Below, piece by piece: positions 12,892 through 60,070 of a DNA stretch of 64,000 nt (within the stretch, counting starts at the first letter, position 1; each line of letters starts with the position of its first letter). A program made the translations under genes and the position numbers. Below the pieces are notes generated by a model. It was not told the origin of the DNA. It did not search any database and saw only the letters and a list, made by a program, of their open reading frames with translations. The stretch lies in assembly GCF_054482595.1 (NCBI RefSeq), contig NZ_CM137008.1. One strand, given 5' to 3'.

Positions 12892-12911
12892 GTTACCAGG
12901 TGACCAGTCCT

Positions 12912-15229: not shown

Positions 15230-15406
15230 CTGGATGCCTGAAAGACCAGTCTGAATTATTCTGTCAATAGCCTGCGGATGAAATCAATTTTTTTAGGACT
15301 GATGCCAGTTAAATTTTTATTCAATTAACTGCAAGGTAAATGTGCATGGCGACATTGCTATTAATAGTGCACAGGATAATTACTCTGCCAAAGTGATAAA
15401 TAAACA

Positions 15407-16546: not shown

Positions 16547-16551
16547 TCGTC

Positions 16552-16995: not shown

Positions 16996-16997
16996 GA

Positions 16998-19160: not shown

Positions 19161-19169
19161 CGACATCCG

Positions 19170-19280
19170 CTGTCGGATGCGATGCTGACGCATCTTATCC
19201 GACCTACCTTCACGCCGCATCCGGCAAGCAAACCAGCTCCGTAGGCCGGATAAGGCGCTCACGCCGCATCCGGCAACAGA
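19170..19280. repeat. REP/BIME cluster between wzc and wcaA
   Basis: Several REP-like palindromes (gatgcgacgc / cttatccg / gccggatgcggcgtg types). Confidence 0.65.
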
Positions 19281-19337
19281 ACCCGTAAACAAGCTTATAA
19301 ACCGGCAGAACATCTCGATACTCCGGGAGAACAACCT

Positions 19338-20177: not shown

Positions 20178-20179
20178 AG

Positions 20180-23074: not shown

Positions 23075-23084
23075 GAATAAGAAC

Positions 23085-23831: not shown

Positions 23832-23846
23832 ATATAAGGAATACCA

Positions 23847-24395: not shown

Positions 24396-24421
24396 ATTCA
24401 AAAAATACAGAGGAATAAGAC

Positions 24422-25543
24422 ATGTCAAAAGTCGCTCTCATCACCGGTGTAACCGGACAAGACGGTTCTTACCTGGCAGAGTTTCTGCTGGAAAAAGGTT
24501 ACGAGGTGCATGGTATTAAGCGTCGTGCATCGTCATTCAACACCGAGCGCGTGGATCATATTTATCAGGATCCGCATACCTGTAACCCGAAATTCCATCT
24601 GCATTATGGCGACCTGAGTGATACCTCCAACCTGACGCGTATTTTGCGTGAAGTGCAGCCGGATGAAGTGTACAACCTGGGCGCAATGAGCCACGTTGCG
24701 GTTTCTTTTGAGTCACCGGAATATACCGCTGACGTCGACGCGATGGGTACGCTGCGCCTGCTCGAGGCGATCCGCTTCCTCGGTCTGGAAAAGAAAACCC
24801 GTTTCTATCAGGCTTCCACCTCTGAACTGTATGGTCTGGTGCAGGAAATTCCGCAGAAAGAAACCACGCCGTTCTACCCGCGATCTCCGTATGCGGTCGC
24901 CAAACTGTACGCCTACTGGATCACCGTTAACTACCGCGAATCCTACGGCATGTACGCCTGCAACGGTATTCTCTTCAACCATGAATCCCCGCGCCGTGGC
25001 GAAACCTTCGTTACCCGCAAAATAACCCGCGCAATCGCCAACATCGCCCAGGGGCTGGAGTCGTGCCTGTACCTCGGCAATATGGATTCCCTGCGTGACT
25101 GGGGCCACGCCAAAGACTACGTAAAAATGCAGTGGATGATGCTGCAACAGGAACAGCCAGAAGATTTCGTTATTGCTACCGGCGTTCAGTACTCCGTGCG
25201 TCAGTTCGTAGAAATGGCGGCAGCACAGCTGGGCATCAAACTGCGCTTTGAAGGCACGGGCGTTGAAGAGAAGGGCATTGTGGTTTCCGTCACCGGGCAT
25301 GACGCGCCGGGCGTTAAACCGGGTGATGTGATTATCGCTGTTGACCCGCGTTACTTCCGTCCGGCTGAAGTTGAAACGCTGCTCGGCGACCCGACCAAAG
25401 CGCACGAAAAACTGGGCTGGAAACCGGAAATCACCCTCAGAGAGATGGTGTCTGAAATGGTGGCTAATGACCTCGAAGCGGCGAAAAAACACTCTCTGCT
25501 GAAATCTCACGGCTACGACGTGGCGATCGCGCTGGAGTCATAA
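24422..25543 (+). CDS. gmd: GDP-mannose 4,6-dehydratase
   Basis: 373-aa ORF; Rossmann [13 protein letters not shown] catalytic YAVAK. Confidence 0.95.
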
Positions 25544-25545
25544 GC

Positions 25546-26511
25546 ATGAGTAAACAACGAGTTTTTATTGCTGGTCATCGCGGGATGGTCGGTTCCGCCA
25601 TCAAGCGACAGCTCGAACAGCGCGGTGATGTGGAGCTGGTATTACGCACCCGCGATGAACTGAACCTGCTGGACAGCCGCGCGGTGCATGATTTCTTTGC
25701 CAGCGAAAGCATTGACCAGGTCTATCTGGCGGCGGCGAAAGTGGGCGGCATTGTTGCCAACAACACGTATCCGGCGGATTTCATCTACCAGAACATGATG
25801 ATTGAGAGCAACATCATTCACGCCGCGCATCAGAACGACGTGAACAAACTGCTGTTTCTCGGATCGTCCTGTATCTACCCGAAACTGGCAAAACAGCCGA
25901 TGGCAGAAAGCGAGTTATTGCAGGGCACGCTGGAGCCGACCAACGAGCCTTATGCCATTGCCAAAATTGCCGGGATCAAACTGTGCGAATCTTACAACCG
26001 CCAGTACGGACGCGATTACCGCTCAGTCATGCCGACCAACCTGTATGGCCCGCATGACAACTTCCACCCGAGTAATTCGCATGTGATCCCAGCATTGTTG
26101 CGTCGCTTCCACGAGGCGACGGCACAGAATGCGCCGGACGTTGTGGTATGGGGCAGCGGTACACCGATGCGTGAATTCCTGCACGTCGATGATATGGCGG
26201 CGGCCAGCATTCACGTGATGGAGCTGGCGCACGAAGTCTGGCTGGAGAACACCCAGCCGATGCTGTCGCACATTAACGTCGGTACCGGTGTTGACTGCAC
26301 TATCCGCGAGCTGGCGCAAACCATCGCCAAAGTGGTGGATTACAAAGGTCGGGTGGTTTTTGATGCCAGCAAGCCGGATGGTACGCCGCGCAAACTGCTG
26401 GATGTGACGCGCCTGCATCAGCTTGGCTGGTATCACGAAATCTCACTGGAAGCGGGGCTTGCCAGCACTTACCAGTGGTTCCTTGAGAATCGAGACCGCT
26501 TTCGGGGGTAA
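25546..26511 (+). CDS. fcl: GDP-L-fucose synthase
   Basis: 321-aa [15 protein letters not shown](P)-binding motif. Confidence 0.95.
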
Positions 26512-26513
26512 TG

Positions 26514-26993
26514 ATGTTTTTACGTCAGGAAGACTTTGCCACGGTAGTGCGCTCCACACCGCTTGTCTCTCTCGACTTTATTGCCGAGAACAGTCGCGGC
26601 GAGTTTCTGCTTGGCAAAAGAACCAACCGCCCGGCGCAGGGTTACTGGTTTGTGCCGGGAGGGCGCGTGCAGAAAGACGAAACGCTGGAAGCCGCATTTG
26701 AGCGGCTGACGATGGCGGAACTGGGGCTGCGTCTGCCGATAACAGCAGGCCAGTTTTACGGTGTCTGGCAGCACTTTTATGACGATAACTTCTCTGGCAC
26801 GGATTTCACCACTCACTATGTGGTGCTCGGTTTTCGCTTCAGAGTCGCTGAAGAAGATCTGATACTGCCGGATGAGCAGCATGACGATTACCGCTGGCTG
26901 ACGCCGGACGCGCTGCTCGCCAGTAACGATGTTCACGCTAACAGCCGCGCCTATTTTCTCGCTGAGAAGCGTGCCGGAGTACCCGGATTATGA
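26514..26993 (+). CDS. gmm: GDP-mannose mannosyl hydrolase (Nudix)
   Basis: 159 aa from second ATG (MFLRQEDF...); Nudix-type fold; start overlaps fcl stop. Confidence 0.9.
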
Positions 26994-28213
26994 AAATACT
27001 GGTCTACGGCATTAACTACTCGCCGGAGTTAACCGGTATCGGCAAATACACCGGCGAGATGGTGGAATGGCTGGCGGCGCAAGGTCATGAGGTGCGGGTT
27101 ATTACCGCACCGCCTTACTACCCGCAGTGGCAGGTGGGCGAGAACTATTCCGCCTGGCGCTACAAACGAGAAGAGGGGGCCGCCACGGTGTGGCGCTGCC
27201 CGCTGTACGTGCCAAAACAGCCGAGCACCCTGAAACGCTTGTTGCATCTCGGCAGTTTTGCCGTCAGCAGTTTTTTCCCGTTGATGGCGCAACGTCGCTG
27301 GAAGCCGGATCGCATTATCGGCGTGGTGCCAACGCTGTTTTGCACGCCGGGAATGCGCCTGCTGGCGAAACTCTCTGGTGCACGTACCGTGCTGCATATT
27401 CAGGATTACGAAGTGGACGCCATGCTGGGGCTGGGCCTTGCCGGAAAAGGCAAAGGCGGCAAAGTGGCACAGCTGGCAACGGCGTTCGAACGTAGCGGAC
27501 TGCATAACGTCGATAACGTCTCCACGATTTCGCGTTCGATGATGAATAAAGCCATCGAAAAAGGCGTGGCGGTGGATAACATCATTTTCTTCCCCAACTG
27601 GTCGGAAATCGCCCGTTTTCAGCATGTTGCAGACGCCGATGTTGATGCCCTTCGTAACCAGCTTGGCCTGCCGGATAACAAAAAAATCATTCTTTACTCC
27701 GGCAATATTGGTGAAAAGCAGGGACTGGAAAACGTTATTGAAGCTGCCGATCGCCTGCGCGATGAACCGCTGATTTTTGCCATTGTCGGGCAGGGCGGCG
27801 GCAAAGCGCGGCTGGAAAAAATGGCGCAGCAGCGTGGACTGCGCAACATGCAATTTTTCCCGCTGCAATCGTATGACGCTTTACCCGCACTGCTGAAGAT
27901 GGGCGATTGCCATCTGGTGGTGCAAAAACGCGGCGCGGCAGATGCCGTATTGCCGTCGAAACTGACCAATATTCTGGCAGTAGGTGGTAACGCGGTGATT
28001 ACCGCAGAGGCCCACACAGAACTGGGGCAGCTTTGCGAAACCTTTCGGGGCATTGCGGTTTGCGTAGAACCGGAATCGGTCGAGGCGCTGGTGGCGGGGA
28101 TCCGTCAGGCGCTTCTGTTGCCCAAACACAACACGGTGGCACGTGAATATGCCGAACGCACGCTCGATAAAGAGAACGTGTTACGTCAATTTATAAATGA
28201 TATTCGGGGATAA
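26990..28213 (+). CDS. wcaI: Colanic acid glycosyltransferase (GT1)
   Basis: 407-aa ORF matching WcaI. Confidence 0.9.
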
Positions 28214-28215
28214 TT

Positions 28216-29652
28216 ATGGCGCAGTCGAAACTCTATCCAGTTGTGATGGCAGGTGGCTCCGGTAGCCGCTTATGGCCGCTTTCCCGCGTACTTTACCCCA
28301 AGCAGTTTTTATGCCTGAAAGGCGATCTCACCATGCTGCAAACCACCATCTGCCGCCTGAACGGCGTGGAGTGCGAAAGCCCGGTGGTGATTTGCAATGA
28401 GCAGCACCGCTTTATTGTCGCGGAACAGTTGCGTCAACTGAATAAACTTACCGAGAACATTATTCTCGAACCGGCAGGGCGTAACACTGCACCTGCCATT
28501 GCGTTGGCGGCGCTGGCGGCAAAACGTCATAGCCCGGAGAGCGACCCGTTAATGCTGGTGCTGGCGGCGGATCATGTGATTGCCGATGAAGACGCGTTCC
28601 GTGCCGCCGTGCGTAATGCCATGCCATATGCCGAAGCGGGCAAGCTGGTGACCTTCGGCATTGTGCCGGATCTACCTGAAACCGGATATGGCTATATTCG
28701 TCGCGGTGAAGTGTCTGCGGGTGAGCAGGATACGGTGGCCTTTGAAGTGGCGCAGTTTGTCGAAAAACCGAATCTGGAAACCGCCCAGGCCTATGTGGCA
28801 AGCGGCGAATATTACTGGAACAGCGGTATGTTCCTGTTCCGCGCCGGACGCTATCTCGAAGAACTGAAAAAATATCGCCCGGATATTCTCGATGCCTGTG
28901 AAAAAGCGATGAGCGCCGTCGATCCGGATCTTGATTTTATTCGTGTGGATGAAGAAGCGTTTCTCGCCTGCCCGGAAGAGTCGGTGGATTACGCGGTCAT
29001 GGAACGTACGGCAGATGCTGTTGTGGTGCCGATGGATGCGGGCTGGAGCGATGTTGGTTCCTGGTCTTCATTATGGGAGATCAGCGCCCACACCGCCGAG
29101 GGCAACGTTTGCCACGGCGATGTGATTAATCACAAAACTGAAAACAGCTATGTGTACGCCGAATCTGGCCTGGTCACCACCGTCGGGGTGAAAGATCTGG
29201 TAGTGGTGCAGACCAAAGATGCGGTGCTGATTGCCGACCGTAACGCGGTGCAGGATGTGAAAAAAGTGGTCGAGCAGATCAAAGCCGATGGTCGCCATGA
29301 GCATCGGGTGCATCGCGAAGTGTATCGTCCGTGGGGCAAATATGACTCTATCGACGCGGGCGACCGCTACCAGGTGAAACGCATCACCGTGAAACCGGGC
29401 GAGGGCTTGTCGGTACAGATGCACCATCACCGCGCGGAACACTGGGTAGTGGTCGCGGGAACGGCAAAAGTCACCATTGATGGTGATATCAAACTGCTTG
29501 GTGAAAACGAGTCCATTTATATTCCGCTGGGGGCGACGCACTGCCTGGAAAATCCGGGGAAAATTCCGCTCGATTTAATTGAAGTGCGCTCCGGCTCTTA
29601 TCTCGAAGAGGATGATGTGGTGCGCTTCGCGGATCGCTACGGACGGGTGTAA
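28216..29652 (+). CDS. cpsB: Mannose-1-phosphate guanylyltransferase
   Basis: 478-aa ORF; nucleotidyltransferase [11 protein letters not shown] motif plus C-terminal cupin. Confidence 0.95.
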
Positions 29653-29653
29653 A

Positions 29654-29755
<102 letters not shown>

Positions 29756-29844
29756 ATGAATGCGAAACCGAGATGTAAATAACGACAAAAACAAAATTGG
29801 CCGTTTCGGTCAGGGCCAACTATTGCCTGAAAAAGGGTAACGAC

Positions 29845-31215
29845 ATGAAAAAATTAACCTGCTTTAAAGCCTATGATATTCGCGGGAAATTAGGCGAAGA
29901 ACTGAATGAAGATATCGCCTGGCGCATTGGTCGCGCCTATGGCGAATTTCTCAAACCGAAAACCATTGTGTTAGGCGGTGATGTCCGTCTCACCAGCGAA
30001 ACCTTAAAACTGGCGCTGGCAAAAGGTTTACAGGATGCGGGCGTTGACGTGCTGGATATCGGTATGTCCGGCACCGAAGAGATCTATTTCGCCACGTTCC
30101 ATCTCGGCGTGGATGGCGGCATTGAAGTCACCGCCAGCCATAATCCGATGGATTATAACGGCATGAAGCTGGTGCGCGAAGGGGCTCGCCCGATCAGCGG
30201 TGATACCGGACTGCGCGATGTCCAGCGCCTGGCTGAAGCCAACGACTTTCCTCCCGTCGATGAAACCAAACGCGGTCGCTATCAGCAAATCAACCTGCGT
30301 GACGCTTACGTTGATCACCTGTTCGGTTATATCAATGTCAAAAATCTCACGCCGCTCAAGCTGGTGATCAACTCCGGGAATGGCGCAGCGGGTCCGGTGG
30401 TGGACGCCATTGAAGCCCGCTTTAAAGCCCTCGGCGCGCCCGTGGAATTAATCAAAGTACACAACACACCGGACGGCAATTTCCCCAACGGTATTCCTAA
30501 CCCGCTGCTACCGGAATGTCGCGACGACACCCGCAATGCGGTCATCAAACACGGCGCGGATATGGGCATTGCCTTTGATGGCGATTTTGACCGCTGTTTC
30601 CTGTTTGACGAAAAAGGGCTGTTTATCGAGGGCTATTACATTGTCGGCCTGCTGGCAGAAGCATTCCTCGAAAAAAATCCCGGCGCGAAGATCATCCACG
30701 ATCCACGTCTCTCCTGGAACACCGTTGATGTGGTGACTGCCGCAGGTGGCACGCCGGTAATGTCGAAAACCGGACACGCCTTTATTAAAGAACGTATGCG
30801 CAAGGAGGACGCCATCTACGGTGGCGAAATGAGCGCTCACCATTACTTCCGTGATTTCGCTTACTGCGACAGCGGCATGATCCCGTGGCTACTGGTAGCC
30901 GAACTGGTGTGCCTGAAAGAGAAAACGCTGGGCGAACTGGTACGCGACCGGATGGTGGCGTTTCCGGCAAGCGGTGAGATCAACAGCAAACTGGCGCAAC
31001 CCGCTGAGGCGATTAACCGCGTGGAACAGCATTTTAGCCGTGAGGCGCTGGCGGTGGATCGTACCGATGGCATCAGTATGACCTTTGCCGACTGGCGTTT
31101 TAACCTGCGCTCCTCCAACACCGAACCGGTGGTGCGGTTGAATGTGGAATCGCGCGGTGATGTGCCGCTGATGGAAGCGCGAACGCGAACTCTGCTGACG
31201 TTGCTGAACGAGTAA
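29845..31215 (+). CDS. cpsG: Phosphomannomutase
   Basis: 456 aa from ATG at 29845 ([14 protein letters not shown]); active-site TASHNP. Confidence 0.95.
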
Positions 31216-31269
31216 TGTCGGATCTTCCCTTACCCCACTGCGGGTAAGGGGCTAATAACAGGAACAACG

Positions 31270-32664
31270 ATGACAAATCTAAAAAAGCGCGAGCGAGCGA
31301 AAACCAATGCATCGTTAATCTCTATGGTGCAACGCTTTTCAGATATCACCATCATGTTTGCCGGACTATGGCTGGTTTGCGAAGTGAGCGGCCTGTCATT
31401 CCTCTACATGCACCTGTTGGTGGCACTGATTACGCTGGTGGTGTTCCAGATGCTGGGCGGCATCACCGATTTTTATCGCTCATGGCGCGGTGTTCGGGCA
31501 GCGACAGAATTTGCTCTGTTGCTACAAAACTGGACGTTAAGCGTGATTTTCAGCGCCGGACTGGTGGCGTTCAACAATGATTTCGACACGCAACTGAAAA
31601 TCTGGCTGGCGTGGTATGGGCTGACCAGCATCGGACTGGTGGTTTGCCGTTCATGTATTCGTATTGGGGCGGGCTGGCTGCGTAATCATGGCTATAACAA
31701 GCGCATGGTCGCCGTAGCGGGGGATTTAGCCGCCGGACAAATGCTGATGGAGAGCTTCCGTAATCAGCCGTGGTTAGGGTTTGAAGTGGTGGGGGTTTAC
31801 CACGACCCGAAACCGGGCGGCGTTTCTAACGACTGGGCGGGTAACCTGCAACAGCTGGTCGAGGATGCTAAAGCGGGTAAGATTCATAACGTCTATATCG
31901 CGATGCAAATGTGCGACGGCGCGCGAGTGAAAAAACTGGTCCATCAACTGGCGGACACCACCTGTTCGGTGCTGCTGATCCCCGATGTCTTTACCTTCAA
32001 CATTCTCCATTCACGTCTCGAAGAGATGAACGGCGTTCCGGTGGTGCCGCTGTATGACACGCCGCTTTCCGGGGTTAACCGCCTGCTAAAACGTGCGGAA
32101 GACATTGTGCTGGCGACGCTGATCTTGCTGCTGATCTCCCCGGTGCTGTGCTGTATTGCGCTGGCGGTGAAACTCAGTTCACCTGGGCCGGTTATTTTCC
32201 GCCAGACTCGCTATGGCATGGATGGCAAGCCGATCAAAGTGTGGAAGTTCCGTTCCATGAAAGTGATGGAGAACGACAAAGTGGTGACTCAGGCGACGCA
32301 GAACGATCCGCGCGTCACCAAAGTGGGGAACTTTCTGCGCCGCACCTCGCTGGATGAACTGCCGCAGTTTATCAATGTGCTGACCGGGGGGATGTCGATT
32401 GTCGGTCCACGTCCGCACGCAGTAGCGCATAACGAACAGTATCGCCAGCTCATTGAAGGCTACATGCTGCGCCACAAAGTGAAACCGGGCATTACCGGCT
32501 GGGCGCAGATTAATGGCTGGCGCGGCGAAACCGACACGCTGGAGAAAATGGAAAAACGCGTCGAGTTCGACCTTGAGTACATCCGCGAATGGAGCGTCTG
32601 GTTCGATATCAAAATCGTTTTCCTGACGGTGTTCAAAGGTTTCGTTAACAAAGCGGCATATTGA
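31270..32664 (+). CDS. wcaJ: UDP-glucose:undecaprenyl-phosphate glucose-1-phosphate transferase
   Basis: 464-aa ORF; bacterial sugar transferase C-terminal domain (PRPHAVAHNEQY...GITGWAQINGWRG). Confidence 0.95.
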   Translation: MTNLKKRERAKTNASLISMVQRFSDITIMFAGLWLVCEVSGLSFLYMHLLVALITLVVFQMLGGITDFYRSWRGVRAATEFALLLQNWTLSVIFSAGLVAFNNDFDTQLKIWLAWYGLTSIGLVVCRSCIRIGAGWLRNHGYNKRMVAVAGDLAAGQMLMESFRNQPWLGFEVVGVYHDPKPGGVSNDWAGNLQQLVEDAKAGKIHNVYIAMQMCDGARVKKLVHQLADTTCSVLLIPDVFTFNILHSRLEEMNGVPVVPLYDTPLSGVNRLLKRAEDIVLATLILLLISPVLCCIALAVKLSSPGPVIFRQTRYGMDGKPIKVWKFRSMKVMENDKVVTQATQNDPRVTKVGNFLRRTSLDELPQFINVLTGGMSIVGPRPHAVAHNEQYRQLIEGYMLRHKVKPGITGWAQINGWRGETDTLEKMEKRVEFDLEYIREWSVWFDIKIVFLTVFKGFVNKAAY

Positions 32665-32665
32665 T

Positions 32666-34144
32666 ATGAGCTTACGTGAAAAAACCATCAGCGGCGCGAA
32701 GTGGTCGGCGATTGCCACGGTGATCATCATCGGCCTCGGGCTGGTGCAGATGACCGTGCTGGCGCGGATTATCGACAACCACCAGTTCGGCCTGCTGACT
32801 GTGTCGCTGGTGATTATCGCGCTGGCAGATACGCTTTCTGACTTCGGTATCGCTAACTCGATTATTCAGCGAAAAGAAATCAGTCACCTTGAACTCACCA
32901 CGTTGTACTGGCTGAACGTCGGGCTGGGGATCGTGGTGTGCGTGGCGGTGTTTTTGTTGAGTGATCTCATCGGCGACGTGCTGAATAACCCGGACCTGGC
33001 ACCGTTGATTAAAACATTGTCGCTGGCGTTTGTGGTGATCCCCCACGGGCAACAGTTCCGCGCGTTGATGCAGAAGGAGCTGGAGTTCAACAAAATCGGC
33101 ATGATCGAAACCAGCGCGGTGCTGGCGGGCTTCACTTTTACGGTGGTTAGCGCCCATTTCTGGCCGCTGGCGATGACCGCGATCCTCGGTTATCTGGTCA
33201 ATAGTGCGGTGAGAACGCTGCTGTTTGGCTACTTTGGTCGAAAAATTTATCGCCCCGGTCTGCATTTCTCGCTGGCGTCTGTGGCACCAAACTTACGTTT
33301 TGGTGCCTGGCTGACGGCGGACAGCATCATCAACTATCTCAATACCAACCTTTCAACGCTGGTGCTGGCGCGTATTCTCGGCGCGGGCGTGGCAGGGGGA
33401 TACAACCTGGCGTACAACGTGGCCGTTGTGCCGCCGATGAAGCTGAACCCAATCATCACCCGTGTGTTGTTTCCGGCGTTTGCCAAAATTCAGGACGATA
33501 CCGAAAAGCTGCGCGTCAACTTCTACAAGCTGCTGTCGGTGGTGGGGATTATCAACTTTCCGGCGCTGCTCGGGCTGATGGTGGTGTCAAATAACTTTGT
33601 ACCGCTGGTATTTGGCGAAAAGTGGAACAGCATTATTCCGGTGCTGCAATTGCTGTGTGTGGTGGGGCTACTGCGCTCCGTGGGTAACCCGATTGGTTCG
33701 CTGCTGATGGCGAAAGCGCGGGTCGATATCAGCTTTAAATTCAACGTATTCAAAACATTTCTGTTTATTCCGGCGATTGTTATTGGTGGGCAGATGGCGG
33801 GCGCAATCGGCGTCACGCTCGGTTTCCTGCTGGTGCAGATTATCAACACCATTCTGAGTTACTTCGTGATGATTAAACCGGTTCTTGGTTCCAGTTATCG
33901 CCAGTACATCCTGAGTTTGTGGCTGCCGTTTTATCTCTCGTTGCCGACGCTGGTGGTCAGTTATGCGCTGGGCATTGTGCTGAAAGGGCAACTGGCGCTG
34001 GGGATGCTGCTGGCGGTGCAAATAGCCGCGGGCGTGCTGGCGTTTGTGGTGATGATTGTGCTGTCGCGCCATCCGCTGGTGGTGGAAGTGAAGCGTCAGT
34101 TTTGTCGCAGCGAAAAAATGAAAATGCTTTTACGGGCGGGGTGA
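32666..34144 (+). CDS. wzxC: Colanic acid repeat-unit flippase (Wzx/PST family)
   Basis: 492-aa polytopic membrane ORF. Confidence 0.9.
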   Translation: MSLREKTISGAKWSAIATVIIIGLGLVQMTVLARIIDNHQFGLLTVSLVIIALADTLSDFGIANSIIQRKEISHLELTTLYWLNVGLGIVVCVAVFLLSDLIGDVLNNPDLAPLIKTLSLAFVVIPHGQQFRALMQKELEFNKIGMIETSAVLAGFTFTVVSAHFWPLAMTAILGYLVNSAVRTLLFGYFGRKIYRPGLHFSLASVAPNLRFGAWLTADSIINYLNTNLSTLVLARILGAGVAGGYNLAYNVAVVPPMKLNPIITRVLFPAFAKIQDDTEKLRVNFYKLLSVVGIINFPALLGLMVVSNNFVPLVFGEKWNSIIPVLQLLCVVGLLRSVGNPIGSLLMAKARVDISFKFNVFKTFLFIPAIVIGGQMAGAIGVTLGFLLVQIINTILSYFVMIKPVLGSSYRQYILSLWLPFYLSLPTLVVSYALGIVLKGQLALGMLLAVQIAAGVLAFVVMIVLSRHPLVVEVKRQFCRSEKMKMLLRAG

Positions 34145-34187
34145 GTTGTTGTTTTCGGTTCCGACAACGGTTGCCGGGTGCAGCGTA

Positions 34188-34358
34188 AAACGCCTTATCC
34201 ATCCTACGGTTCTGTGCTCGGGTCTTGTAGGCCTGATAAGACGCGTCAGCGTCGCATCAGGCACTGAATGCCGGATGCGGCGTGAACGCCTTATCCGGCC
34301 TACGGTTCTGTGCTCGGGTCTTGTAGGCCTGATAAGACGTGCCAGCGTCGCATCAGGC
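34188..34358. repeat. BIME: two near-identical ~72-bp REP-containing units in tandem
   Basis: Unit at 34191-34262 and unit at 34287-34358 differ at only a few positions. Confidence 0.75.
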
Positions 34359-34419
34359 AAAAAACGGCAACGAACACAACAAACACAGCCTCACCTGGCA
34401 TCAAATTTATGAGGAAAAA

Positions 34420-45228: not shown

Positions 45229-46244
45229 AAGTTGATGCAGTAATCTTATGGGTAGATGGTAATGATCCAAAATGGCAGGAAGAATACAATAAATATTGTA
45301 AGCCGGCCTCTCGAATTGAGAATGGTGTACAAAGATATAGAGATTGGGATACACTACGATATGTAATTCGTGGAATAGAATATAACCTTCCTTGGATTGA
45401 CAAAATACATTTTGTGACATGTGGTCAAAAGCCAAGTTGGATGGTTGGATATCATCCAAAACTCAATTTTGTACATCATAACGATATTTTTGAGAATGAT
45501 ACATTTTTACCCACATTTAATTCAAGTGCAATAGAGTTAAATCTGTCAAGGATAAAGGGATTAAGTGAGAGGTTTATATATTTTAATGATGATATGCTTG
45601 TGCTTAAAAACACTCCTCTTCAGAGGTTTTTTGTAAATGATTTACCGGTGGATTTTTTAATTGAAGCTTTCCCACGGCGTGGGTTATTGTATGAAAAAAT
45701 ACGTTCCAACTCAACTTGGGTTTCAATGATAAATAATTGCACTTCGCTCATAAATAGAGTGTATCACAAGAATAAATATATACAGGATAATCGTAATTTA
45801 TATTATAACATGAACTATGGACGACATGTCATTGCTAATGTACTGGCGTCCCCTTTTAAGCAGTTTTTGGCTTTTAAACACTATCATCATCCTCAAGCAT
45901 ATCTTAAAAAGACATTACAATCCGTTGAGCGTGAGTTCCCAGTGGAGTTTAACTTAACATGCAAATCTAGATTCCGAGAACATGATAATATCTCACAGGC
46001 GTTGTTTAGATATTACCAATTGGTAACTGGTAGTTTTTATCCGTGCTATTATAATGATCATGCCTGTGTTAATGTAGTAAATAAAAAATCTGCAAGCCAG
46101 TGTATTGAAGCTCTTCATCAAAAACGATTTGTGTGTATAAATGATGAGATTAATGACGACTTAGATGATAGTTCAATTTTAATAAATGATATAATTAAAG
46201 AGTTGGATTTGATTCTTCCAAATAAATCAAGTTTTGAGATCTAA
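45225..46244 (+). CDS. Stealth-family hexose-1-phosphate transferase (glycosyl-phosphotransferase)
   Basis: 339-aa ORF; Stealth CR1-like DAVILWVDGNDPKW, CR2-like TLRYVIRGIEYNLPWIDKIHFVT, CR3-like YFNDDM. Confidence 0.75.
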   Translation: MKVDAVILWVDGNDPKWQEEYNKYCKPASRIENGVQRYRDWDTLRYVIRGIEYNLPWIDKIHFVTCGQKPSWMVGYHPKLNFVHHNDIFENDTFLPTFNSSAIELNLSRIKGLSERFIYFNDDMLVLKNTPLQRFFVNDLPVDFLIEAFPRRGLLYEKIRSNSTWVSMINNCTSLINRVYHKNKYIQDNRNLYYNMNYGRHVIANVLASPFKQFLAFKHYHHPQAYLKKTLQSVEREFPVEFNLTCKSRFREHDNISQALFRYYQLVTGSFYPCYYNDHACVNVVNKKSASQCIEALHQKRFVCINDEINDDLDDSSILINDIIKELDLILPNKSSFEI

Positions 46245-46250
46245 ATTAAT

Positions 46251-47069
46251 ATGAATTCGTTTGATGAGTTTAATGTGCTACTATCTCTTTATAAAAATGA
46301 GAGCCCCGATAATCTGGATGCGTGTTTTCAAAGCATAAGCACTCAATCTTTGAAAAGATTTAAAATAATACTTGTCATAGATGGTCCTATTTCTTCTGAG
46401 TTAAATGAGGTTGTCGGAAAGTGGAAGTCACTATTACCTATTAAAATTATCAATCTCGAACGTAATGTTGGCTTAGGTAATGCTTTAAATATAGGTTTGA
46501 AATATTGCAGTTGTGATTATGTGTTTCGTATGGATACAGATGATATTTGTCATCCGGATAGGTTTTCCATACAATTTAGTTATCTGAGGAAACACCCCGA
46601 TATTGATTTGCTTGGTGGACAGATTGTAGAATTCCATGAATGCATAGAGGAGCCTAACGGTATGCGGTTAGTACCTTCTAAATATGAGGAAATTCTTCAG
46701 TATTGTAAACTTAAAAACCCATTTAATCATATGACAGTTGTGTTTAAAAGAGAGAGTGTACTTAAGGTCGGTGGATATAAACATCATTTATATATGGAGG
46801 ATTATAATCTTTGGCTTCGTATGATATCAATTGGTTGCAAAGTGGAAAATTTAGATGATGTGATTGTTTTTGCCCGAACAGACGTGAATTCATTAATGAG
46901 ACGTAGAGGGTGGCAATATGTTAAAAGTGAATGGAAATTAGCACTGTTAAAAATAAAGTTAAGAATAAATAATCCTATTGTTTCTTTATCTGTTTTTATC
47001 CTCCGATCTATACCTCGATTATTACCTATTATGTTGATTCGTAGAATTTATGCCCACAACCGCAAGTGA
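46251..47069 (+). CDS. Glycosyltransferase family 2
   Basis: 272-aa ORF; FNVLLSLYKNE ... VIDGP ... MDTDD motifs. Confidence 0.8.
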   Translation: MNSFDEFNVLLSLYKNESPDNLDACFQSISTQSLKRFKIILVIDGPISSELNEVVGKWKSLLPIKIINLERNVGLGNALNIGLKYCSCDYVFRMDTDDICHPDRFSIQFSYLRKHPDIDLLGGQIVEFHECIEEPNGMRLVPSKYEEILQYCKLKNPFNHMTVVFKRESVLKVGGYKHHLYMEDYNLWLRMISIGCKVENLDDVIVFARTDVNSLMRRRGWQYVKSEWKLALLKIKLRINNPIVSLSVFILRSIPRLLPIMLIRRIYAHNRK

Positions 47070-47217
47070 ATTTTTTTAAGTCATATTGAGTAATTGAGTA
47101 ATAGTTTTCCTATGTAATCAAAATTAACTATCAGTTTTATTATTAGTTGGGTAATATCTCTCTATATCTCAACCAGTGCAGTCATTGCATGGTGAACACC
47201 CCTGACAGGAGTAAACA

Positions 47218-48624
47218 ATGTCAAAGCAACAGATTGGCGTCGTCGGTATGGCAGTGATGGGGCGCAACCTTGCGCTCAACATCGAAAGCCGTGGTTATAC
47301 CGTCTCTATTTTCAACCGTTCCCGTGAAAAGACGGAAGAAGTGATTGCCGAAAATCCAGGCAAAAAACTGGTTCCTTACTATACGGTGAAAGAGTTTGTT
47401 GAATCTCTGGAAACGCCTCGTCGCATCCTGTTAATGGTGAAAGCAGGTGCAGGCACGGATGCTGCTATTGATTCCCTCAAGCCATACCTCGATAAAGGTG
47501 ACATCATCATTGATGGTGGTAATACTTTCTTCCAGGACACCATTCGTCGTAACCGTGAACTTTCTGCCGAAGGCTTTAACTTCATTGGTACCGGTGTTTC
47601 CGGTGGTGAAGAAGGCGCGCTGAAAGGGCCTTCCATTATGCCTGGTGGCCAGAAAGAAGCCTATGAACTGGTTGCACCGATCCTCACCAAAATCGCCGCA
47701 GTGGCTGAAGACGGTGAGCCATGCGTTACCTATATTGGTGCCGATGGAGCAGGTCACTATGTGAAGATGGTTCACAACGGTATTGAATACGGCGATATGC
47801 AGCTGATTGCTGAAGCCTATTCTCTGCTTAAAGGTGGCCTGAATCTTTCCAACGAAGAACTGGCGCAGACGTTTACCGAGTGGAATAACGGTGAACTGAG
47901 CAGCTACCTGATCGACATCACCAAAGATATCTTCACCAAAAAAGATGAAGACGGTAACTACCTGGTTGATGTGATTCTGGATGAAGCAGCAAACAAAGGT
48001 ACGGGCAAATGGACCAGCCAGAGTGCGCTGGATCTCGGCGAACCGTTGTCGCTGATTACCGAGTCTGTGTTTGCTCGTTATATCTCTTCTCTGAAAGATC
48101 AGCGTGTTGCCGCATCTAAAGTTCTCTCTGGCCCGCAAGCACAGCCAGCAGGCGACAAGGCTGAGTTCATCGAAAAAGTTCGTCGTGCGCTGTATCTGGG
48201 CAAAATCGTTTCTTACGCCCAGGGCTTCTCTCAGCTGCGTGCTGCGTCTGAAGAGTACAACTGGGATCTGAACTACGGCGAAATCGCGAAGATTTTCCGT
48301 GCTGGTTGCATCATCCGTGCGCAGTTCCTGCAGAAAATCACCGATGCATACGCCGAAAATCCGCAGATCGCTAACCTGCTGCTGGCTCCGTACTTCAAGC
48401 AAATTGCCGATGACTACCAGCAGGCGCTGCGCGATGTCGTCGCTTATGCGGTACAGAACGGTATCCCGGTTCCGACCTTCGCCGCTGCGGTTGCCTATTA
48501 TGACAGCTACCGCGCCGCAGTTCTGCCTGCGAACCTGATCCAGGCACAGCGTGACTATTTCGGTGCGCATACTTATAAGCGCATTGATAAAGAAGGTGTG
48601 TTCCATACCGAATGGTTGGATTAA
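47218..48624 (+). CDS. gnd: 6-phosphogluconate dehydrogenase (decarboxylating)
   Basis: 468-aa [22 protein letters not shown]-binding motif. Confidence 0.95.
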
Positions 48625-48650
48625 TCTGATCTAACCAACAATAAATTTAG

Positions 48651-48678
48651 GCCCGGCGTATATTGCGCCGGGCTTTTT
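48651..48678 (+). terminator. GC-rich hairpin plus T-run after gnd (gnd terminator or IS200 left-end terminator)
   Basis: gcccggcg / cgccgggc stem with 7-nt loop, then TTTTT. Confidence 0.6.
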
Positions 48679-48821
48679 GTGCACAGAAAACCCCCAGCTA
48701 GGCTGGGGGTTCCGGAAAGCTATCAGCTTTGAGCCAGTTATTAAAACCCCTTTTGATTTGTTAAAACACCTTGCGGTCTGGCAACTGCAAGTGTCAAACA
48801 AGAAATCAAAAGGGGGTCCCA

Positions 48822-49280
48822 ATGGGGAACGAAAAGAGCTTAGCGCACACCCGATGGAACTGTAAATATCACATAGTTTTTGCGCCAAAATACTGAAGAC
48901 AAGTGTTCTACAGAGAGAAACGTAGAGCAATAGGCAGTATTTTGAGAAAGCTGTGTGAGTGGAAAAGCGTACGGATTCTTGAAACTGAATGCTGTGCAGA
49001 TCATATCCATATGCTTGTGGAGAGCCCGCCCAAAATGAGCGTATCCGGCTTTATGGGATATCTGAAAGGGAAAAGCAGTCTGATGCTTTACGAGCAGTTT
49101 GATGATTTGAAATTCAAATACAGGAACAGGGAGTTCTGGTGCAGAGGGTACTACGTCGATACGGTGGGTAAGAACACGGCGAAGATACAGGATTACATAA
49201 AGCACCAGCTTGAAGAGGATAAAATGGGAGAGCAGTTATCGATTCCCTATCCGGGCAGCCCGTTTACGGGCCGTAAGTAA
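48822..49280 (+). pseudogene. tnpA: IS200 tnpA (Y1 HuH transposase) interrupted by an in-frame TGA at codon 25
   Basis: MGNEKSLAHTRWNCKYHIVFAPKY, TGA at 48894-48896, then the same frame continues through HIHMLVE (HuH motif) to the stop at 49280. Confidence 0.75.
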
Positions 49281-49361
49281 CGAAGTTGGATGCAAATGTC
49301 AGATCGTGTGCGCCTGTTAGGGCGCGGCTGGTAAGAGAGCCTTATAGGCGCATTTGAAAAA

Positions 49362-49392
49362 CCTCCGGCTATGCCGGAGGATATTTATTTTT
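49362..49392 (+). terminator. Hairpin plus T-run at the IS200-like right end
   Basis: cctccggc / gccggagg stem with 3-nt loop, followed by atatttattttt. Confidence 0.55.
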
Positions 49393-49573
49393 GCCAATTA
49401 TCTTATAGACTAAATTTCACTGCTTAATATTAACTTAATAAATATCAGCTATTCTTATAAAGAAAATCTGAATTGTTTTTCGTTGCGTTGACCATCTGAC
49501 AACGTAGCGTTAAAACTTTTAGCTCTTATCAGGATGCTAAAAACATCATGATTCACAGTTAAGTTAATTCTGA

Positions 49574-50749
<1,176 letters not shown>

Positions 50750-50759
50750 CATCCTGTTA

Positions 50760-50790
50760 TCAGGGCGATTTTCGCCCTGATTCTCTTATG
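50760..50790 (+). terminator. Putative terminator hairpin after ugd
   Basis: atcagggcg / cgccctgat stem with 5-nt loop, then a U-rich tail. Confidence 0.5.
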
Positions 50791-50895
50791 TTCCCTTTGT
50801 AATAATTCATTATTTTTATCATTTATCCTATAGCATTCATGGCGATTATCGCTAAACTATGGCGACTTAAAATTATTTCGTCCGTTAGGGTAATG

Positions 50896-51876
50896 ATGAG
50901 AGTAGAAAATAATAATGTTTCTGGGCAAAACCATGACCAGGAACAGATTGATTTGATTGATTTACTGGTGCAGTTGTGGCGTGGCAAGATGACAATTATC
51001 ATCTCTGTCATTGTTGCTATTGCCCTGGCTATTGGGTATTTGGCGGTAGCGAAGGAGAAATGGACGTCAACAGCAATTATCACTCAGCCTGACGTGGGGC
51101 AAATTGCTGGCTATAACAATGCCATGAATGTTATCTATGGTCAGGCTGCACCTAAAGTGCCGGATTTACAGGAGGCGTTAATTGGTCGCTTCAGTTCTGC
51201 CTTCTCTGCATTAGCAGAAACGCTGGATAATCAGAAAGAACCAGAAAAACTTACCATCGAACCTTCTGTAAAGAACCAGCAATTACCATTGACTGTTTCT
51301 TATGTTGGGCAAACTGCAGAGGACGCACAAATGAAATTGGCCCAATACATTCAGCAAGTTGATGATAAAGTAAATCAAGAGCTAGAAAAGGATCTCAAGG
51401 ACAACCTTGCTTTGGGACGGAAAAACTTGCAGGACTCTTTAAGAACTCAGGAAGTGGTTGCGCAGGAGCAGAAAGATCTGCGTATCCGTCAGATTCAGGA
51501 AGCGTTGCAGTATGCGAATCAGGCGCAGGTGACAAAACCGCAGATTCAACAGACTGGCGAAGATATCACACAAGATACGTTGTTCCTTTTGGGGAGCGAA
51601 GCGCTGGAGTCGATGATTAAGCATGAGGCAACTCGTCCGTTGGTGTTTTCGCCAGACTACTATCAGACTCGTCAAAACCTGCTGGATATCGAAAACTTAA
51701 AGGTTGACGATCTTGATATTCATGCTTACCGTTATGTGATGAAACCGACGTTACCTATTCGTCGCGATAGCCCGAAAAAGGCAATTACCTTGATTCTGGC
51801 GGTGCTGCTGGGCGGCATGGTTGGCGCGGGGATTGTGTTGGGGCGTAATGCTCTGCGTAATTACAACTCGAAGTAA
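50896..51876 (+). CDS. wzzB: O-antigen chain-length determinant (polysaccharide co-polymerase 1)
   Basis: 326 aa from ATG at 50896 (MRVENNNVSG); two TM segments flanking a periplasmic coiled-coil region. Confidence 0.9.
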   Translation: MRVENNNVSGQNHDQEQIDLIDLLVQLWRGKMTIIISVIVAIALAIGYLAVAKEKWTSTAIITQPDVGQIAGYNNAMNVIYGQAAPKVPDLQEALIGRFSSAFSALAETLDNQKEPEKLTIEPSVKNQQLPLTVSYVGQTAEDAQMKLAQYIQQVDDKVNQELEKDLKDNLALGRKNLQDSLRTQEVVAQEQKDLRIRQIQEALQYANQAQVTKPQIQQTGEDITQDTLFLLGSEALESMIKHEATRPLVFSPDYYQTRQNLLDIENLKVDDLDIHAYRYVMKPTLPIRRDSPKKAITLILAVLLGGMVGAGIVLGRNALRNYNSK

Positions 51877-51898
51877 TCTTTTCGGTTTTAAAGAAAAT

Positions 51899-51931
51899 GG
51901 GCAGGGTGGTGACACCTTGCCCGTTTTTTTT
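51899..51931. terminator. Bidirectional rho-independent terminator between convergent wzzB and hisI
   Basis: gggcaggg / ccttgccc stem followed by TTTTTTTT on the plus strand; U-rich on the minus strand as well. Confidence 0.65.
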
Positions 51932-51972
51932 GCCGGATGCGACGACAATATCGCATCCGCTTACCCCGCAAC

Positions 51973-52577
51973 TCACTGATGCCGTTTACGCAGGTTCTCA
52001 ATCACCGTCGTTAAGTCCAGATCCTGATCCTGCAATAGCACCAGCAGGTGATACATCAAATCAGATGCCTCGTTGGTCAGCTCAAAGCGGTCATGTACTG
52101 TCGCTGCCAGTGCGGTTTCCACGCCTTCTTCGCCCACTTTCTGCGCAATGCGCTTGGTGCCGCTGGCATACAGTTTGGCGGTATAGGAGGTTTCCGGGTC
52201 GGCAGATTTACGTTCGGCGAGCAGTTGTTCCAGTTGATACAGGAACAGCCACTGGTGAGCGGTGTCGCCGAAGCAGCTGCTGGTGCCTTTGTGGCAGGTC
52301 GGGCCGATGGGATTCGCCAGCAACAGTAACGTGTCGTTGTCGCAGTCCGGCGTAATATTTACTACGTTGAGGAAATTGCCCGACGTTTCGCCTTTGGTCC
52401 ACAGTCGCTGTTTAGTGCGCGAGAAGAAGGTGACTTTGCCGCTTTCGATGGTTTTGTCCAGGGCTTGCGGGTTCATATAGCCCAGCATTAACACTTCACC
52501 GGATACCGCGTGTTGCACAATCACCGGCATAAGTCCGTCGGTTTTTTCCCAGTCCAGTTCGCGACGTTGTTGTTCTG

Positions 52578-52584
<7 letters not shown>
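51973..52584 (-). CDS. hisI: Bifunctional phosphoribosyl-AMP cyclohydrolase / phosphoribosyl-ATP pyrophosphatase
   Basis: 203-aa ORF matching HisIE. Confidence 0.95.
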
Positions 52585-54662
<2,078 letters not shown>

Positions 54663-54663
<1 letters not shown>

Positions 54664-55729
54664 TACAGCACTCCTTTCGACGAGGGCAGGGTATCGCCTT
54701 CCACGCGGATGGCCTGGCGCAGGGTGCGACCAAAAGCTTTGAACAGGCTCTCTACACGGTGATGATCGTTTTTACCTTTGGTTTTCAGGTGCAACGTCAC
54801 GCCCATGGTGTAAGAGAGCGAACGGAAGAAGTGCTCGATCATTTCAGTGCTGAGATCGCCCACGCGCTGGTAGGTAAATTCAGCTTTATATTCCAGGTGC
54901 GGGCGACCAGAGATATCCAGTGCGCAGCGGGCAAGGCATTCGTCCATCGGCAGCACAAAACCAAAGCGGCAAATACCGCGTTTGTCGCCAAGAGCAATTT
55001 TTAACGCTTCGCCCAGCGCCAGGCCGGTATCTTCGACGGTGTGGTGATCGTCGATATAGAGGTCGCCTTTGACGTTGATTTCCATCCGGAAACCGCCGTG
55101 GGTGGCGATCTGATCCAGCATGTGATCAAAGAAGCCAACGCCGGTGTTAATCTTGCTGCCACCTTCGCGATCCAGCCACACCTGGACGTCAATTTGCGTC
55201 TCTTTGGTGTTGCGCACCACATGGGCGTAACGGTCTCGTTTAGTGAGCTGCTCGCCAATCATTGGCCAGTTCAGGGTTTCGCGGTCATAGCGTAAACCAT
55301 TAATGCCCATGTTTTCCGCCAGTTGAATGTCGGTCGCGCGATCGCCAATCACATAACTGTTGGCACGGTCCATCGCTTGCTCAGCCAGATAACGCTCTAC
55401 CAGTTTTACTTTCGGCTTACGGCAGTCGCACTCATCGGCGGGCAGGTGCGGACAAATCAGCACTTCATCAAACTGCACGCCTTGCGAGGTGAAGATCTGC
55501 ATCATCAGGTTGTGCGGGCCATCAAAATCCGCCTGCGGGAAACTTTGTGTTCCCAGACCATCCTGATTAGTGATCATCACCAGCTTGTAGCCCGCTTTTT
55601 GCAGCTTCAGTAGCTCCGGGATCACGCCCGGTTCAAAGGCGAGTTTGTCAAAACGGTCCACCTGAAAATCACTCGGCGGTTCGCTAATCAGGGTTCCATC
55701 GCGATCGATAAAAAGATACTTCTGACTCA

Positions 55730-55730
<1 letters not shown>
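54663..55730 (-). CDS. hisB: Bifunctional histidinol-phosphatase / imidazoleglycerol-phosphate dehydratase
   Basis: 355 aa from [14 protein letters not shown] (HAD motif). Confidence 0.95.
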
Positions 55731-58101
<2,371 letters not shown>

Positions 58102-58106
58102 GGCGA

Positions 58107-59006
58107 TCACTCCATCATCTTCTCAATCGGCAGGACCAGGATTGAACTGGCACCCAGCGCTTTCAGTTTTTCCATGGTTTCCCAGAACAGGGTTTCGCTA
58201 CTGACCATGTGCATCGCTACGCGCTGTTGATCACCCGCCAGCGGTAGAATAGTTGGGCGTTCGGCACCTGGCAGCAGGGCGATGACTTCATCCAGACGTT
58301 CGGTCGGTGCGTGCATCATGATGTATTTTGATTCGCGCGCCTGGATCACACCCTGAATACGGGTCAGCAGTTTGTCGATCAGTTGCTGTTTGGATTCTTC
58401 CATTTCGCCATCGCGCTGGATCAGGCAGGCTTTCGAGCGGTAGATAACTTCGACTTCGCGCAGGCCGTTAGCTTCCAGCGTGGCACCGGTGGAAACCAGA
58501 TCGCAAATCGCATCCGCCAGTCCGGCACGCGGGGCGACTTCAACAGAACCGTTCAGTAAGCAGGATTTAAAAGAGATGCCTTTCTGGTCGAGATAACGCT
58601 TGAGCAGGTGAGGATAAGAGGTGGCGATACGTTTACCGTTTAAGGAGAGCGGGCCGTCCCAGGCTTCATCAACTGGCGTTGCCAGCGAAAGACGGCAGCC
58701 GCCGAAATCCAGACGACGCAGGGTAAAGTAGCGTGGATCTTCACCCTGGGCGCGGCGGTTAAGCAGCTCTTCTTCCAGCACGTTTTCGCCGATAATCCCA
58801 AGGTCTACCACGCCATCCATTACCAGACCGGGAATGTCGTCGTCACGCACGCGCAGAATATCAATCGGCATGTTTTCTGCCATCGCGATCAGGCGCTGGG
58901 TGTGAAGATTGATTTTAATGCCACAGCGCGCCAGCAATTCGCGTGAGTCATCACTTAAACGGCCGGATTTCTGCATAGCTATGCGTAAACGAGTGTTGTC
59001 TGTCAT
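58107..59006 (-). CDS. hisG: ATP phosphoribosyltransferase
   Basis: 299 aa from [18 protein letters not shown]. Confidence 0.95.
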
Positions 59007-59061
59007 TTTCTTATTCCTCTTTAAACCTGTCTGAACCGTTATCAACCGCGCAATAAAAAAG

Positions 59062-59094
59062 CCCCCGGAAGGTGATCTTCCGGGGGCTTTCTCA
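59062..59094 (-). terminator. his attenuator terminator hairpin
   Basis: Minus strand reads agcccccggaag-atcac-cttccgggggct followed by UUUUUAUU, between hisL and hisG. Confidence 0.85.
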
Positions 59095-59151
59095 TGCGTT
59101 CATGCACCACTGGAAGATCTGAATGTCTTCCAGCACACATCGCCTGAAAGA

Positions 59152-59202
59152 CTAGTCAGGATGATGGTGATGATGGTGGTGTTTAAATTGAACGCGTGTC
59201 AT
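59152..59202 (-). CDS. hisL: his operon leader peptide
   Basis: Minus strand encodes MTRVQFKHHHHHHHPD-stop, with seven consecutive His codons. Confidence 0.9.
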   Translation of the reverse strand: MTRVQFKHHHHHHHPD

Positions 59203-59452
59203 AAAAGTCTCTGTGAATGTTTATTCAACTGATGTCTTTTAACCTAAACCACTTTCACGTTAGAAAGCAAGGGCTTTTTTATATATTTTATGGCGATGGA
59301 TTTGTTTAATGAATGAGCGGGGAAAGGAGGGCGCTAAGAGGACTGTCCTCTAACCTGACGGTACCCAAAATAGCGAAGCCTGGATTTTTCGTCTCACTGA
59401 CAATGTCTTGATCTACAAACTAATTAATAAATAGTGAATCAACGTCTATCAT

Positions 59453-59470
59453 TGTACAATAAGCTGTACA
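59453..59470. promoter_or_regulatory. yefM-yoeB operator (paired TGTACA motifs)
   Basis: tgtacaataagctgtaca, 15 nt upstream of the yefM ATG. Confidence 0.65.
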
Positions 59471-59485
59471 AAAGAGGAGATTGAC

Positions 59486-59737
59486 ATGCGTACAATTAGT
59501 TACAGCGAAGCGCGTCAGAATTTGTCGGCAACAATGATGAAAGCCGTTGAAGATCATGCCCCGATCCTTATTACTCGTCAGAATGGAGAGGCTTGTGTTC
59601 TGATGTCACTCGAAGAATACAACTCGCTGGAAGAGACGGCTTATCTACTGCGTTCCCCCGCTAACGCCCGGAGATTGATGGACTCAATCGATAGCCTGAA
59701 AGCAGGCAAAGGAACGGAAAAGGACATTATTGAGTGA
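59486..59737 (+). CDS. yefM: Antitoxin YefM (Phd family)
   Basis: 83-aa [18 protein letters not shown]; 4-bp overlap with yoeB. Confidence 0.95.
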
Positions 59738-59988
59738 AACTAATCTGGTCTGAGGAGTCATGGGATGATTATCTGTACTGGCAGGAAACAGATAAGCGAA
59801 TTGTTAAAAAGATCAATGAACTTATCAAAGATACCCGCAGAACACCATTTGAAGGTAAGGGGAAGCCAGAACCCCTGAAGCATAATTTGTCAGGCTTCTG
59901 GTCCCGACGCATTACAGAGGAGCACCGTCTGGTATACGCGGTTACTGACGATTCACTGCTCATTGCAGCATGTCGTTATCATTATTGA
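59734..59988 (+). CDS. yoeB: Toxin YoeB (RelE-family ribosome-dependent mRNA interferase)
   Basis: 84-aa ORF matching YoeB. Confidence 0.95.
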
Positions 59989-60070
59989 ACAGATTCATTC
60001 ATAGAATGAATTGTCAGTTTTGATACGCTAGCGTAGCCTTATAGATCTAAGGTGTATCAGGAGATAACGG

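Follow-up and report, generated by a model that had tools for sequence, protein, structure and literature searches.

The gnd allele beside an Escherichia coli O160 O-antigen cluster most likely arrived with it in one recombined block of about 12.3 kb

Introduction

Does a housekeeping gene that adjoins an O-antigen gene cluster share the history of its chromosome or that of the cluster? For gnd, hitch-hiking with rfb/O-antigen recombination has been described in E. coli and Salmonella (Bisercic, Feutrier & Reeves 1991; Nelson & Selander 1994), with the O55/O157 pair as a further case (Tarr et al. 2000), all as cited in PMC5429811 and PMC2884935. The latter describes gnd alleles as serogroup-specific and co-inherited with the O-antigen cluster (PMC2884935), and O-serogroup typing schemes are based on this gene (Gilmour et al. 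2007, PMC2884935; Cookson et al. 2017, PMC5429811; gndDb, PMC6696633). Here, we ask to which of the two, chromosome or cluster, the gnd allele of a 64,000-nucleotide stretch of E. coli DNA (contig NZ_CM137008.1; the window) belongs, and where the segment that it travelled with begins and ends.

Materials and Methods

The search set comprised 5,426 complete E. coli genomes other than that of the window, 5,316 of which gave a gnd match. The locus with 20-kb flanks was taken from 12 O160 genomes, and every difference was mapped to window coordinates; XH987, LR025096 and FXCREC004 were left out, being taken, on the basis of strain name, record length or agreement of their search rows, as near-duplicates of XH989, EC-JS426 and FXCREC035, respectively.

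Results

An intact gnd in its canonical position

The gene under study and the elements that belong to it are the following:

47218-48624, + strand: gnd (6-phosphogluconate dehydrogenase), from the NF006765 match and DNA identity to O160 genomes
47513-47623, + strand: nested 36-codon open reading frame within gnd, +2 frame, an open frame at the position of the gndA microprotein sORF
48649-48679, + strand: intrinsic terminator of gnd, a hairpin (48649-48674) followed by a U-run, from RNA folding

The open reading frame of gnd encodes 468 amino acids from ATG to TAA without internal stops. It matches NF006765 with 774.1 bits (cut-off 413) over residues 1-467 of 468 and TIGR00873 over its full length with 770.2 bits (cut-off 426.7), and its DNA is 100% identical to the annotated gnd/gndA of 12 RefSeq E. 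coli chromosomes, with the product WP_000043458.1. The predicted product is thus the decarboxylating NADP-dependent 6-phosphogluconate dehydrogenase, an E. coli housekeeping enzyme. A Klebsiella/Citrobacter-like class of gnd, corresponding to a band of 80-90% identity with 712 genomes, was considered and rejected, as 4,167 genomes (78%) are 95-99% identical to the window allele, which is a typical E. coli-type gnd.

The gene starts 148 bp past the last gene of the O-antigen cluster. Its GC content of 50.5% compares with 27.7-33.3% in the six genes upstream and 53-58% further out. The window reads from the yeg genes through the wza-wcaM colanic-acid cluster, gnu, galF and six AT-rich genes to gnd, and onward through IS200, ugd, wzzB, hisIE to hisG (on the minus strand), yefM/yoeB, yeeZ, yeeY and plaP. 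With the order O-antigen cluster, gnd, ugd, wzzB and his, gnd occupies its canonical chromosomal position. An earlier note on this DNA had placed gnd between an AT-rich O-antigen cluster and an IS200, and every element was indeed found where that note had located it.

The terminator folds with -22.4 kcal/mol (z = -3.43), and none of 200 shuffled sequences was equally stable. When 46900-49650 was scanned for consensus promoters and terminators, the hits showed no excess over shuffled sequence and did not include the gnd terminator, which direct folding showed. The nested reading frame at 47513-47623 fits the published gndA microprotein sORF in its position; gndA is a microprotein nested in gnd with a reported role in heat shock, and residues 17-18 of GndA lie opposite residues S116/A117 of 6PGD (PMC11230408).

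The neighbouring cluster is of O160 type

Upstream and downstream of gnd the relevant features are:

38480-39475, + strand: gnu (Und-PP-GlcNAc 4-epimerase), within the block defined below, from RefSeq annotation of identical DNA
39718-40611, + strand: galF, within the block, from RefSeq annotation of identical DNA
40872-40879, + strand: ops element GGCGGTAG in the galF-wzx spacer (JUMPStart region), exact match
40961-47069, + strand: O160 O-antigen cluster of six genes, from open reading frames and DNA 100% identical to RefSeq O160 loci
40961-42208, + strand: wzx (O160 family), first of six genes that follow RefSeq annotation of identical DNA
42198-43199, + strand: GT2 glycosyltransferase, same basis
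43199-44131, + strand: GT-A glycosyltransferase, same basis
44128-45228, + strand: wzy (O160 family), same basis
45225-46244, + strand: Stealth protein (sugar-phosphate transferase family), same basis
46251-47069, + strand: GT glycosyltransferase, same basis
49583-50749, + strand: ugd, within the block, NF011631 with 893 bits
50896-51876, + strand: wzzB, outside the block, NF012015 with 601.7 bits from residue 20 of the open reading frame

Over 40900-47100 the window is 99.7-100% identical to loci in which RefSeq annotates an O160-family flippase and polymerase, and by its DNA the cluster between galF and gnd is of E. coli O160 type. The gene gnu lies directly upstream of galF, as expected for O160: according to PMC7685785, O160 uses gnu at this place, with GalNAc as the initial sugar. 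When the window is set beside the E. coli O160 cluster (Perepelov et al. 2015, cited in Liu et al. 2020, PMC7685785), the wzx/wzy DNA matches O160 loci, gnu has the same place and, judged from DNA alone, no difference was detected. The Stealth-family gene is in line with the title of the 2015 paper, which calls the O160 polysaccharide phosphate-containing.

The ops element is a mark of RfaH-dependent antitermination in O-antigen operons. In the window the 8-mer GGCGGTAG occurs six times (1.2 expected), at 14630, 15217, 40872, 42104 and 51042 on the + strand and at 3751 on the - strand. The copy at 40872 has the expected JUMPStart position upstream of wzx, those at 14630 and 15217 precede the colanic-acid cluster, and those at 42104, 51042 and 3751 lie inside genes.

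Further variation at this locus was seen among the other O160 genomes. In six of the 12 examined, a complete mannan cluster of the ABC-transporter kind, O8 or O9 in type, separates wzzB from hisIE (about 31000-44200 in the extracted loci), with O9-family wzm/wzt in L002, L005 and L007 and O8-family wzm/wzt in L009, L010 and L011. In these six genomes the O160 Wzx/Wzy cluster holds the galF-gnd site beside a second O-antigen locus; in O8/O9 strains, K-antigen loci are known at the galF-gnd site alongside the O-antigen locus. The window has no O8/O9 cluster here, wzzB ending at 51876 and hisIE lying at 51973-52584. In CUWW10 (L012, about 20097-22336) an IS1 is inserted in wzx and the next genes are lost, and FXCREC035 (L013, about 15248-22381) has ISApl1 in gnu and in wzx and an IS3 after galF. 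Both strains are probably rough or O-non-typeable, and both have kept the O160-linked gnd allele.

The gnd allele is linked to O160

At an identity of at least 99%, the gnd allele of the window is present in 14 of the 5,316 gnd-bearing genomes, the next best match being 98.4% identical. The O160 block (40900-47100) is found in 15 genomes, which are the 14 allele carriers and TUM12355. All 14 carriers of the allele are therefore O160, and 14 of the 15 O160 genomes carry it; the fifteenth, TUM12355, has the same allele with a synonymous mosaic patch of ~500 bp. Leaving TUM12355 aside, the gnd of the O160 genomes differs from that of the window by 0-3 nt. The closest of the O160 genomes are XH989, with no difference in the 9.3-kb core, and the 210205630 group, with two differences in 12.5 kb.

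The flanks give a different picture. None of the 15 O160 genomes ranks in the top 60 matches for window 1-20000 or for 52000-64000, or occurs among the 12 matches listed for 20001-38400. The genomes that are closest in the flanks have other O types: C3728 (O184) is identical to the window over 15093-18241 and has 56 differences in gnd; YZLc23-1, with a different cluster of dTDP-sugar type, has one difference over 26001-38604 and about 65 across the gnd alignment; and Ceylon31 (O3) has 0-2 differences per kb over 51001-58999 and 50 in gnd. For C3728 and Ceylon31, this amounts to a gnd allele that is 3.6-4.0% different from that of the window. Because the flank-closest genomes carry other O clusters together with other gnd alleles, the allele belongs with the O-antigen block rather than with the chromosome around it. 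This comparison of gnd with chromosome and O block, run within the 64-kb window, bears out the proposal of the earlier note that gnd hitch-hikes with O-antigen recombination, as the allele tracks the O160 cluster and diverges from the relatives of the flanks.

The flanks of the window are themselves a patchwork (15000-38600 and 50700-64000), with 1-4% divergence between matching stretches. By stretch, the nearest relative is C3728 (15093-18241), Ceylon31 (about 18.1-20 kb), YZLc23-1 (26.0-38.6 kb) and again Ceylon31 (50.7-59 kb). The region around rfb is a known recombination hot region, and the patchwork fits. Since the flanks are mosaic, they are an imperfect proxy for the clonal frame, and the background is judged here within the 64-kb window.

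Both limits of the shared block fall in conserved genes

Mapping of differences placed the two ends of the shared block as follows:

38429-38604, no strand: left crossover interval, covering the wcaM-gnu spacer and the first ~125 nt of gnu, from difference mapping
50741-50938, no strand: right crossover interval, covering the ugd stop, the ugd-wzzB spacer and the first ~43 nt of wzzB, from difference mapping

Between the window and 210205630 there are two differences in the 12,510 bp of 38429-50938, compared with 612 in 17,412 bp (3.5%) to the left of 38429 and 401 in 13,062 bp (3.1%, or 2.2% without the hypervariable wzzB) to the right of 50938. Within the block, galF shows 0-1 differences per kb and ugd none in comparison with the 210205630 group. 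Further away, over window 1-20000 (20-47 kb left of gnd), the identity with 210205630 is 97.94%; at 2% divergence ~29 differences would be expected in gnd, and none was observed. At the left junction, position 38428 is the last that differs from all O160 genomes and 38605 the first that differs from YZLc23-1; at the right junction, 50740 is the last that differs from Ceylon31 and 50939 the first that differs from 210205630. These intervals enclose both the O160 cluster and gnd, with gnd 2.1 kb inside the right junction. The earlier note had described gnd as immediately flanking the O-antigen block; it does adjoin the AT-rich genes, but it lies inside the transferred segment and not at its edge.

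The wzzB gene, just beyond the right junction, was observed to diverge from the O160 donor genomes far more than the 2-3% of the neighbouring genes. Over 51001-52000, it has 138-177 differences to O160 genomes (about 14%) and none to Ceylon31 (O3).

Could the shared allele simply reflect common ancestry of whole chromosomes, the O160 strains including that of the window being one clone? The core (40650-49950, 9.3 kb) is near-identical in all carriers, with 0-41 nt differences among them, and six of the genomes examined have identical left flanks over 34300-38400, as a clone would. However, this same core occurs in at least seven left-flank and at least five right-flank haplotypes. The haplotype groups differ from each other by 113-189 nt per 4.1 kb on the left (2.7-4.6%) and by 26-63 nt per 1.9 kb on the right (1.4-3.3%). 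Compared with the window, the wcaK-wcaM flank of the O160 genomes shows 163-189 nt differences per 4.1 kb, and their his flank shows 44-59 nt per 1.9 kb. In the local flanks examined, the O160 cluster and gnd haplotype thus occurs in divergent chromosomal backgrounds. Flanks only 1-20 kb away that differ by 2-4.6% among the carriers and from the window, the sharp steps in divergence at 38428/38429 and 50938/50939, flank relatives with other O types, and the extra O8 or O9 cluster between wzzB and hisI in six of the 12 carriers but not in the others all speak against clonal descent, which we regard as very improbable.

Alternatively, one crossover could have fallen inside gnd, leaving the window with a gene that is part donor and part recipient, as in the classic intragenic mosaics of gnd. 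Such mosaics do exist in the relatives: in TUM12355 all 24 gnd differences lie within 47604-48105, a patch that is 99.8% identical to the gnd of seven other genomes, and in TB06051, which carries the nearest non-O160 allele, 17 of 24 differences are clustered in the first third of gnd. Yet the window gnd shows no difference over 1,407 nt to 12 O160 genomes, and the identity extends across IS200 and ugd for another 2.1-2.3 kb, as far as 50741-50938. A crossover inside gnd is thereby refuted for the most recent transfer to the window lineage, and we give this account as a whole little credence; the O160-linked allele itself may have an older mosaic origin.

Variation in gnd is almost entirely synonymous

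The Gnd protein (WP_000043458.1) is the same in all O160 genomes and in TB06051, which is of a different O type. It is unchanged by the 22 nt differences that TB06051 shows within the gnd coding sequence and by the 24 of TUM12355, and the gnd alleles of O184, O3 and O102 genomes, with 50-61 nt differences, have 1-5 residue changes. Variation in gnd is almost purely synonymous, as expected of a neutral passenger under purifying selection. Across the gnd-bearing genomes, 21% have a gnd that is less than 95% identical to the window allele, while the corresponding share is 1.6% for the flank on the his side (12 kb) and 0.3% for that on the left (20 kb), a comparison that is rough since long queries average out variation. 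The high polymorphism of gnd that the earlier note had pointed to is thus seen here as well.

The very tight association of allele and serogroup might also arise if selection on gnd, acting on 6PGD function or on the nested gndA microprotein with its reported heat-shock role (PMC11230408), kept a co-adapted and not a passive allele with O160. The identical protein in TB06051 with a different O cluster, and in TUM12355 despite the 22-24 nt changes of these two, is at odds with such selection, as is the synonymous character of nearly all the variation, and physical linkage over 148 bp is a sufficient explanation. We therefore consider selection on gnd highly improbable.

The IS200 copy beyond gnd is inactive and most likely a passenger

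Directly past the gnd terminator lies an insertion sequence with the following parts:

48679-49383, + strand: IS200 copy of about 705 bp (ends +/-5 bp), within the block; this stretch is absent from the C3728, Ceylon31 and YZLc23-1 alignments
48689-48812, + strand: IS200 5'-UTR RNA element (Rfam STnc490), RF01405
48822-49280, + strand: IS200 tnpA pseudogene, NF033573 with 104.7 bits (remaining open reading frame)

The copy shares with IS200 and IS200C of the IS200/IS605 family the length of ~705 bp, the tnpA match, the terminal hairpins and a full-length match to Rfam STnc490 (RF01405, 144.4 bits against a gathering score of 56). It is therefore assigned to IS200 by its tnpA type, a length of ~700 bp and the structured 5' UTR, but its transposase is not intact: tnpA has a premature TGA at codon 25 (48894-48896), at a position (48894) that differs from the intact IS200C of WCHEC4533, and RefSeq notes an 'internal stop' on identical DNA. 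Unlike IS200 and IS200C, the window copy has a tnpA killed by a nonsense codon and spreads by homologous recombination with the block. All 15 O160 genomes have it at this site, and on nine of the 15 chromosomes no other IS200-like sequence is present; it has therefore spread with the block and not by transposition.

In total, 105 genomes have an IS200 at this site and in this orientation after the gnd terminator, namely the 15 O160 genomes with the tnpA nonsense codon and about 90 others, whose copies are ~98.3% identical. Among the latter is WCHEC4533 (O102; L016, about 14120-14825), in which RefSeq annotates an intact IS200C tnpA. Compared with the window, its IS differs by about 1.4% and the adjacent gnd and ugd by about 4.3%, which suggests either recurrent insertion at a preferred target or a separate exchange of the IS segment. 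The full-length match to STnc490, an Hfq-binding sRNA, persists in front of the dead transposase gene. It is conceivable, though we think it unlikely, that the site is an IS200 hot spot and that its surviving RNA, or its influence on gnd-to-ugd read-through, has been domesticated.

An IS within the block raises the question whether the IS200 beside gnd itself moved or captured the O160-gnd segment, and PMC7685785 describes IS elements as able to mediate non-homologous transfer of O-antigen genes. The block, however, ends in the conserved gnu and ugd/wzzB, at 10 kb and 1.4 kb from the ends of the IS, and tnpA has a premature stop; moreover, a composite transposon cannot be formed because only one IS copy is present. 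Mobilisation by IS200 is, in our view, scarcely credible.

Discussion

Based on the linkage of the allele with O160 and on the mapped limits, we propose with a probability of about 0.9 that the gnd allele of the window entered together with the O160 cluster as one block of ~12.3 kb from another O160 E. coli. The block would comprise gnu, galF, the six cluster genes (wzx, GT, GT, wzy, Stealth, GT), gnd, IS200 and ugd, and it would have replaced, by homologous recombination, whatever O-antigen locus stood there before. The crossovers would have taken place at the start of gnu on one side (38429-38604) and, on the other, where ugd meets wzzB (50741-50938). Both junctions fall in conserved sequence, which fits homologous recombination in flanking genes and not IS-mediated movement; replacement of O-antigen clusters via such recombination is described in PMC7685785. 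Transfer may have occurred by transduction or conjugation, followed by a RecA-dependent crossover.

Which lineage was the recipient? Because both junctions are seen in the window alone and the flank on either side carries on into haplotypes of non-O160 genomes, parsimony suggests that it was the lineage of the window. Selection would have acted on the O antigen and not on gnd, and the position of gnd 2.1 kb inside the right junction makes it a passive, hitch-hiking passenger and not a border. The presence of gnu in the imported block makes functional sense, because O160 needs gnu for its initiating sugar GalNAc. As to origin, the earlier note had expected the allele to be informative about the source of the transferred segment. 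This is borne out in so far as the donor indicated by the allele is an E. coli O160 strain; it does not extend to the ultimate source of the ~30%-GC, AT-rich genes.

Is this a new kind of event? The biology is already known, and the locus is an O160 instance of gnd hitch-hiking, with no difference in kind from the precedents: gnd adjoins the O-antigen cluster, a serogroup-specific allele occurs in unrelated backgrounds, variation is mostly synonymous and one relative (TUM12355) has an intragenic mosaic patch. The precise tract limits are the sole addition. In the O160 case the crossovers lie beyond gnd, in gnu and at ugd/wzzB, so that ugd and the IS200 relic hitch-hike too. Typing based on gnd rests on the correlation of allele and serogroup that was measured here (14 of 15 O160 genomes, 14 of 14 carriers), with the difference that the typing schemes use partial gnd (e.g. 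284 bp) whereas we compared full-length gnd.

In summary, the finding matters little beyond book-keeping and opens no new question, while it illustrates cleanly, and with numbers, how homologous recombination switches the O antigen in E. coli, with both crossover intervals shorter than 200 bp. The O160 genotype can be read reliably from gnd, which is useful for gnd-based typing, but neither gnd nor the wca-his region as a whole is suited to tracing clonal ancestry.
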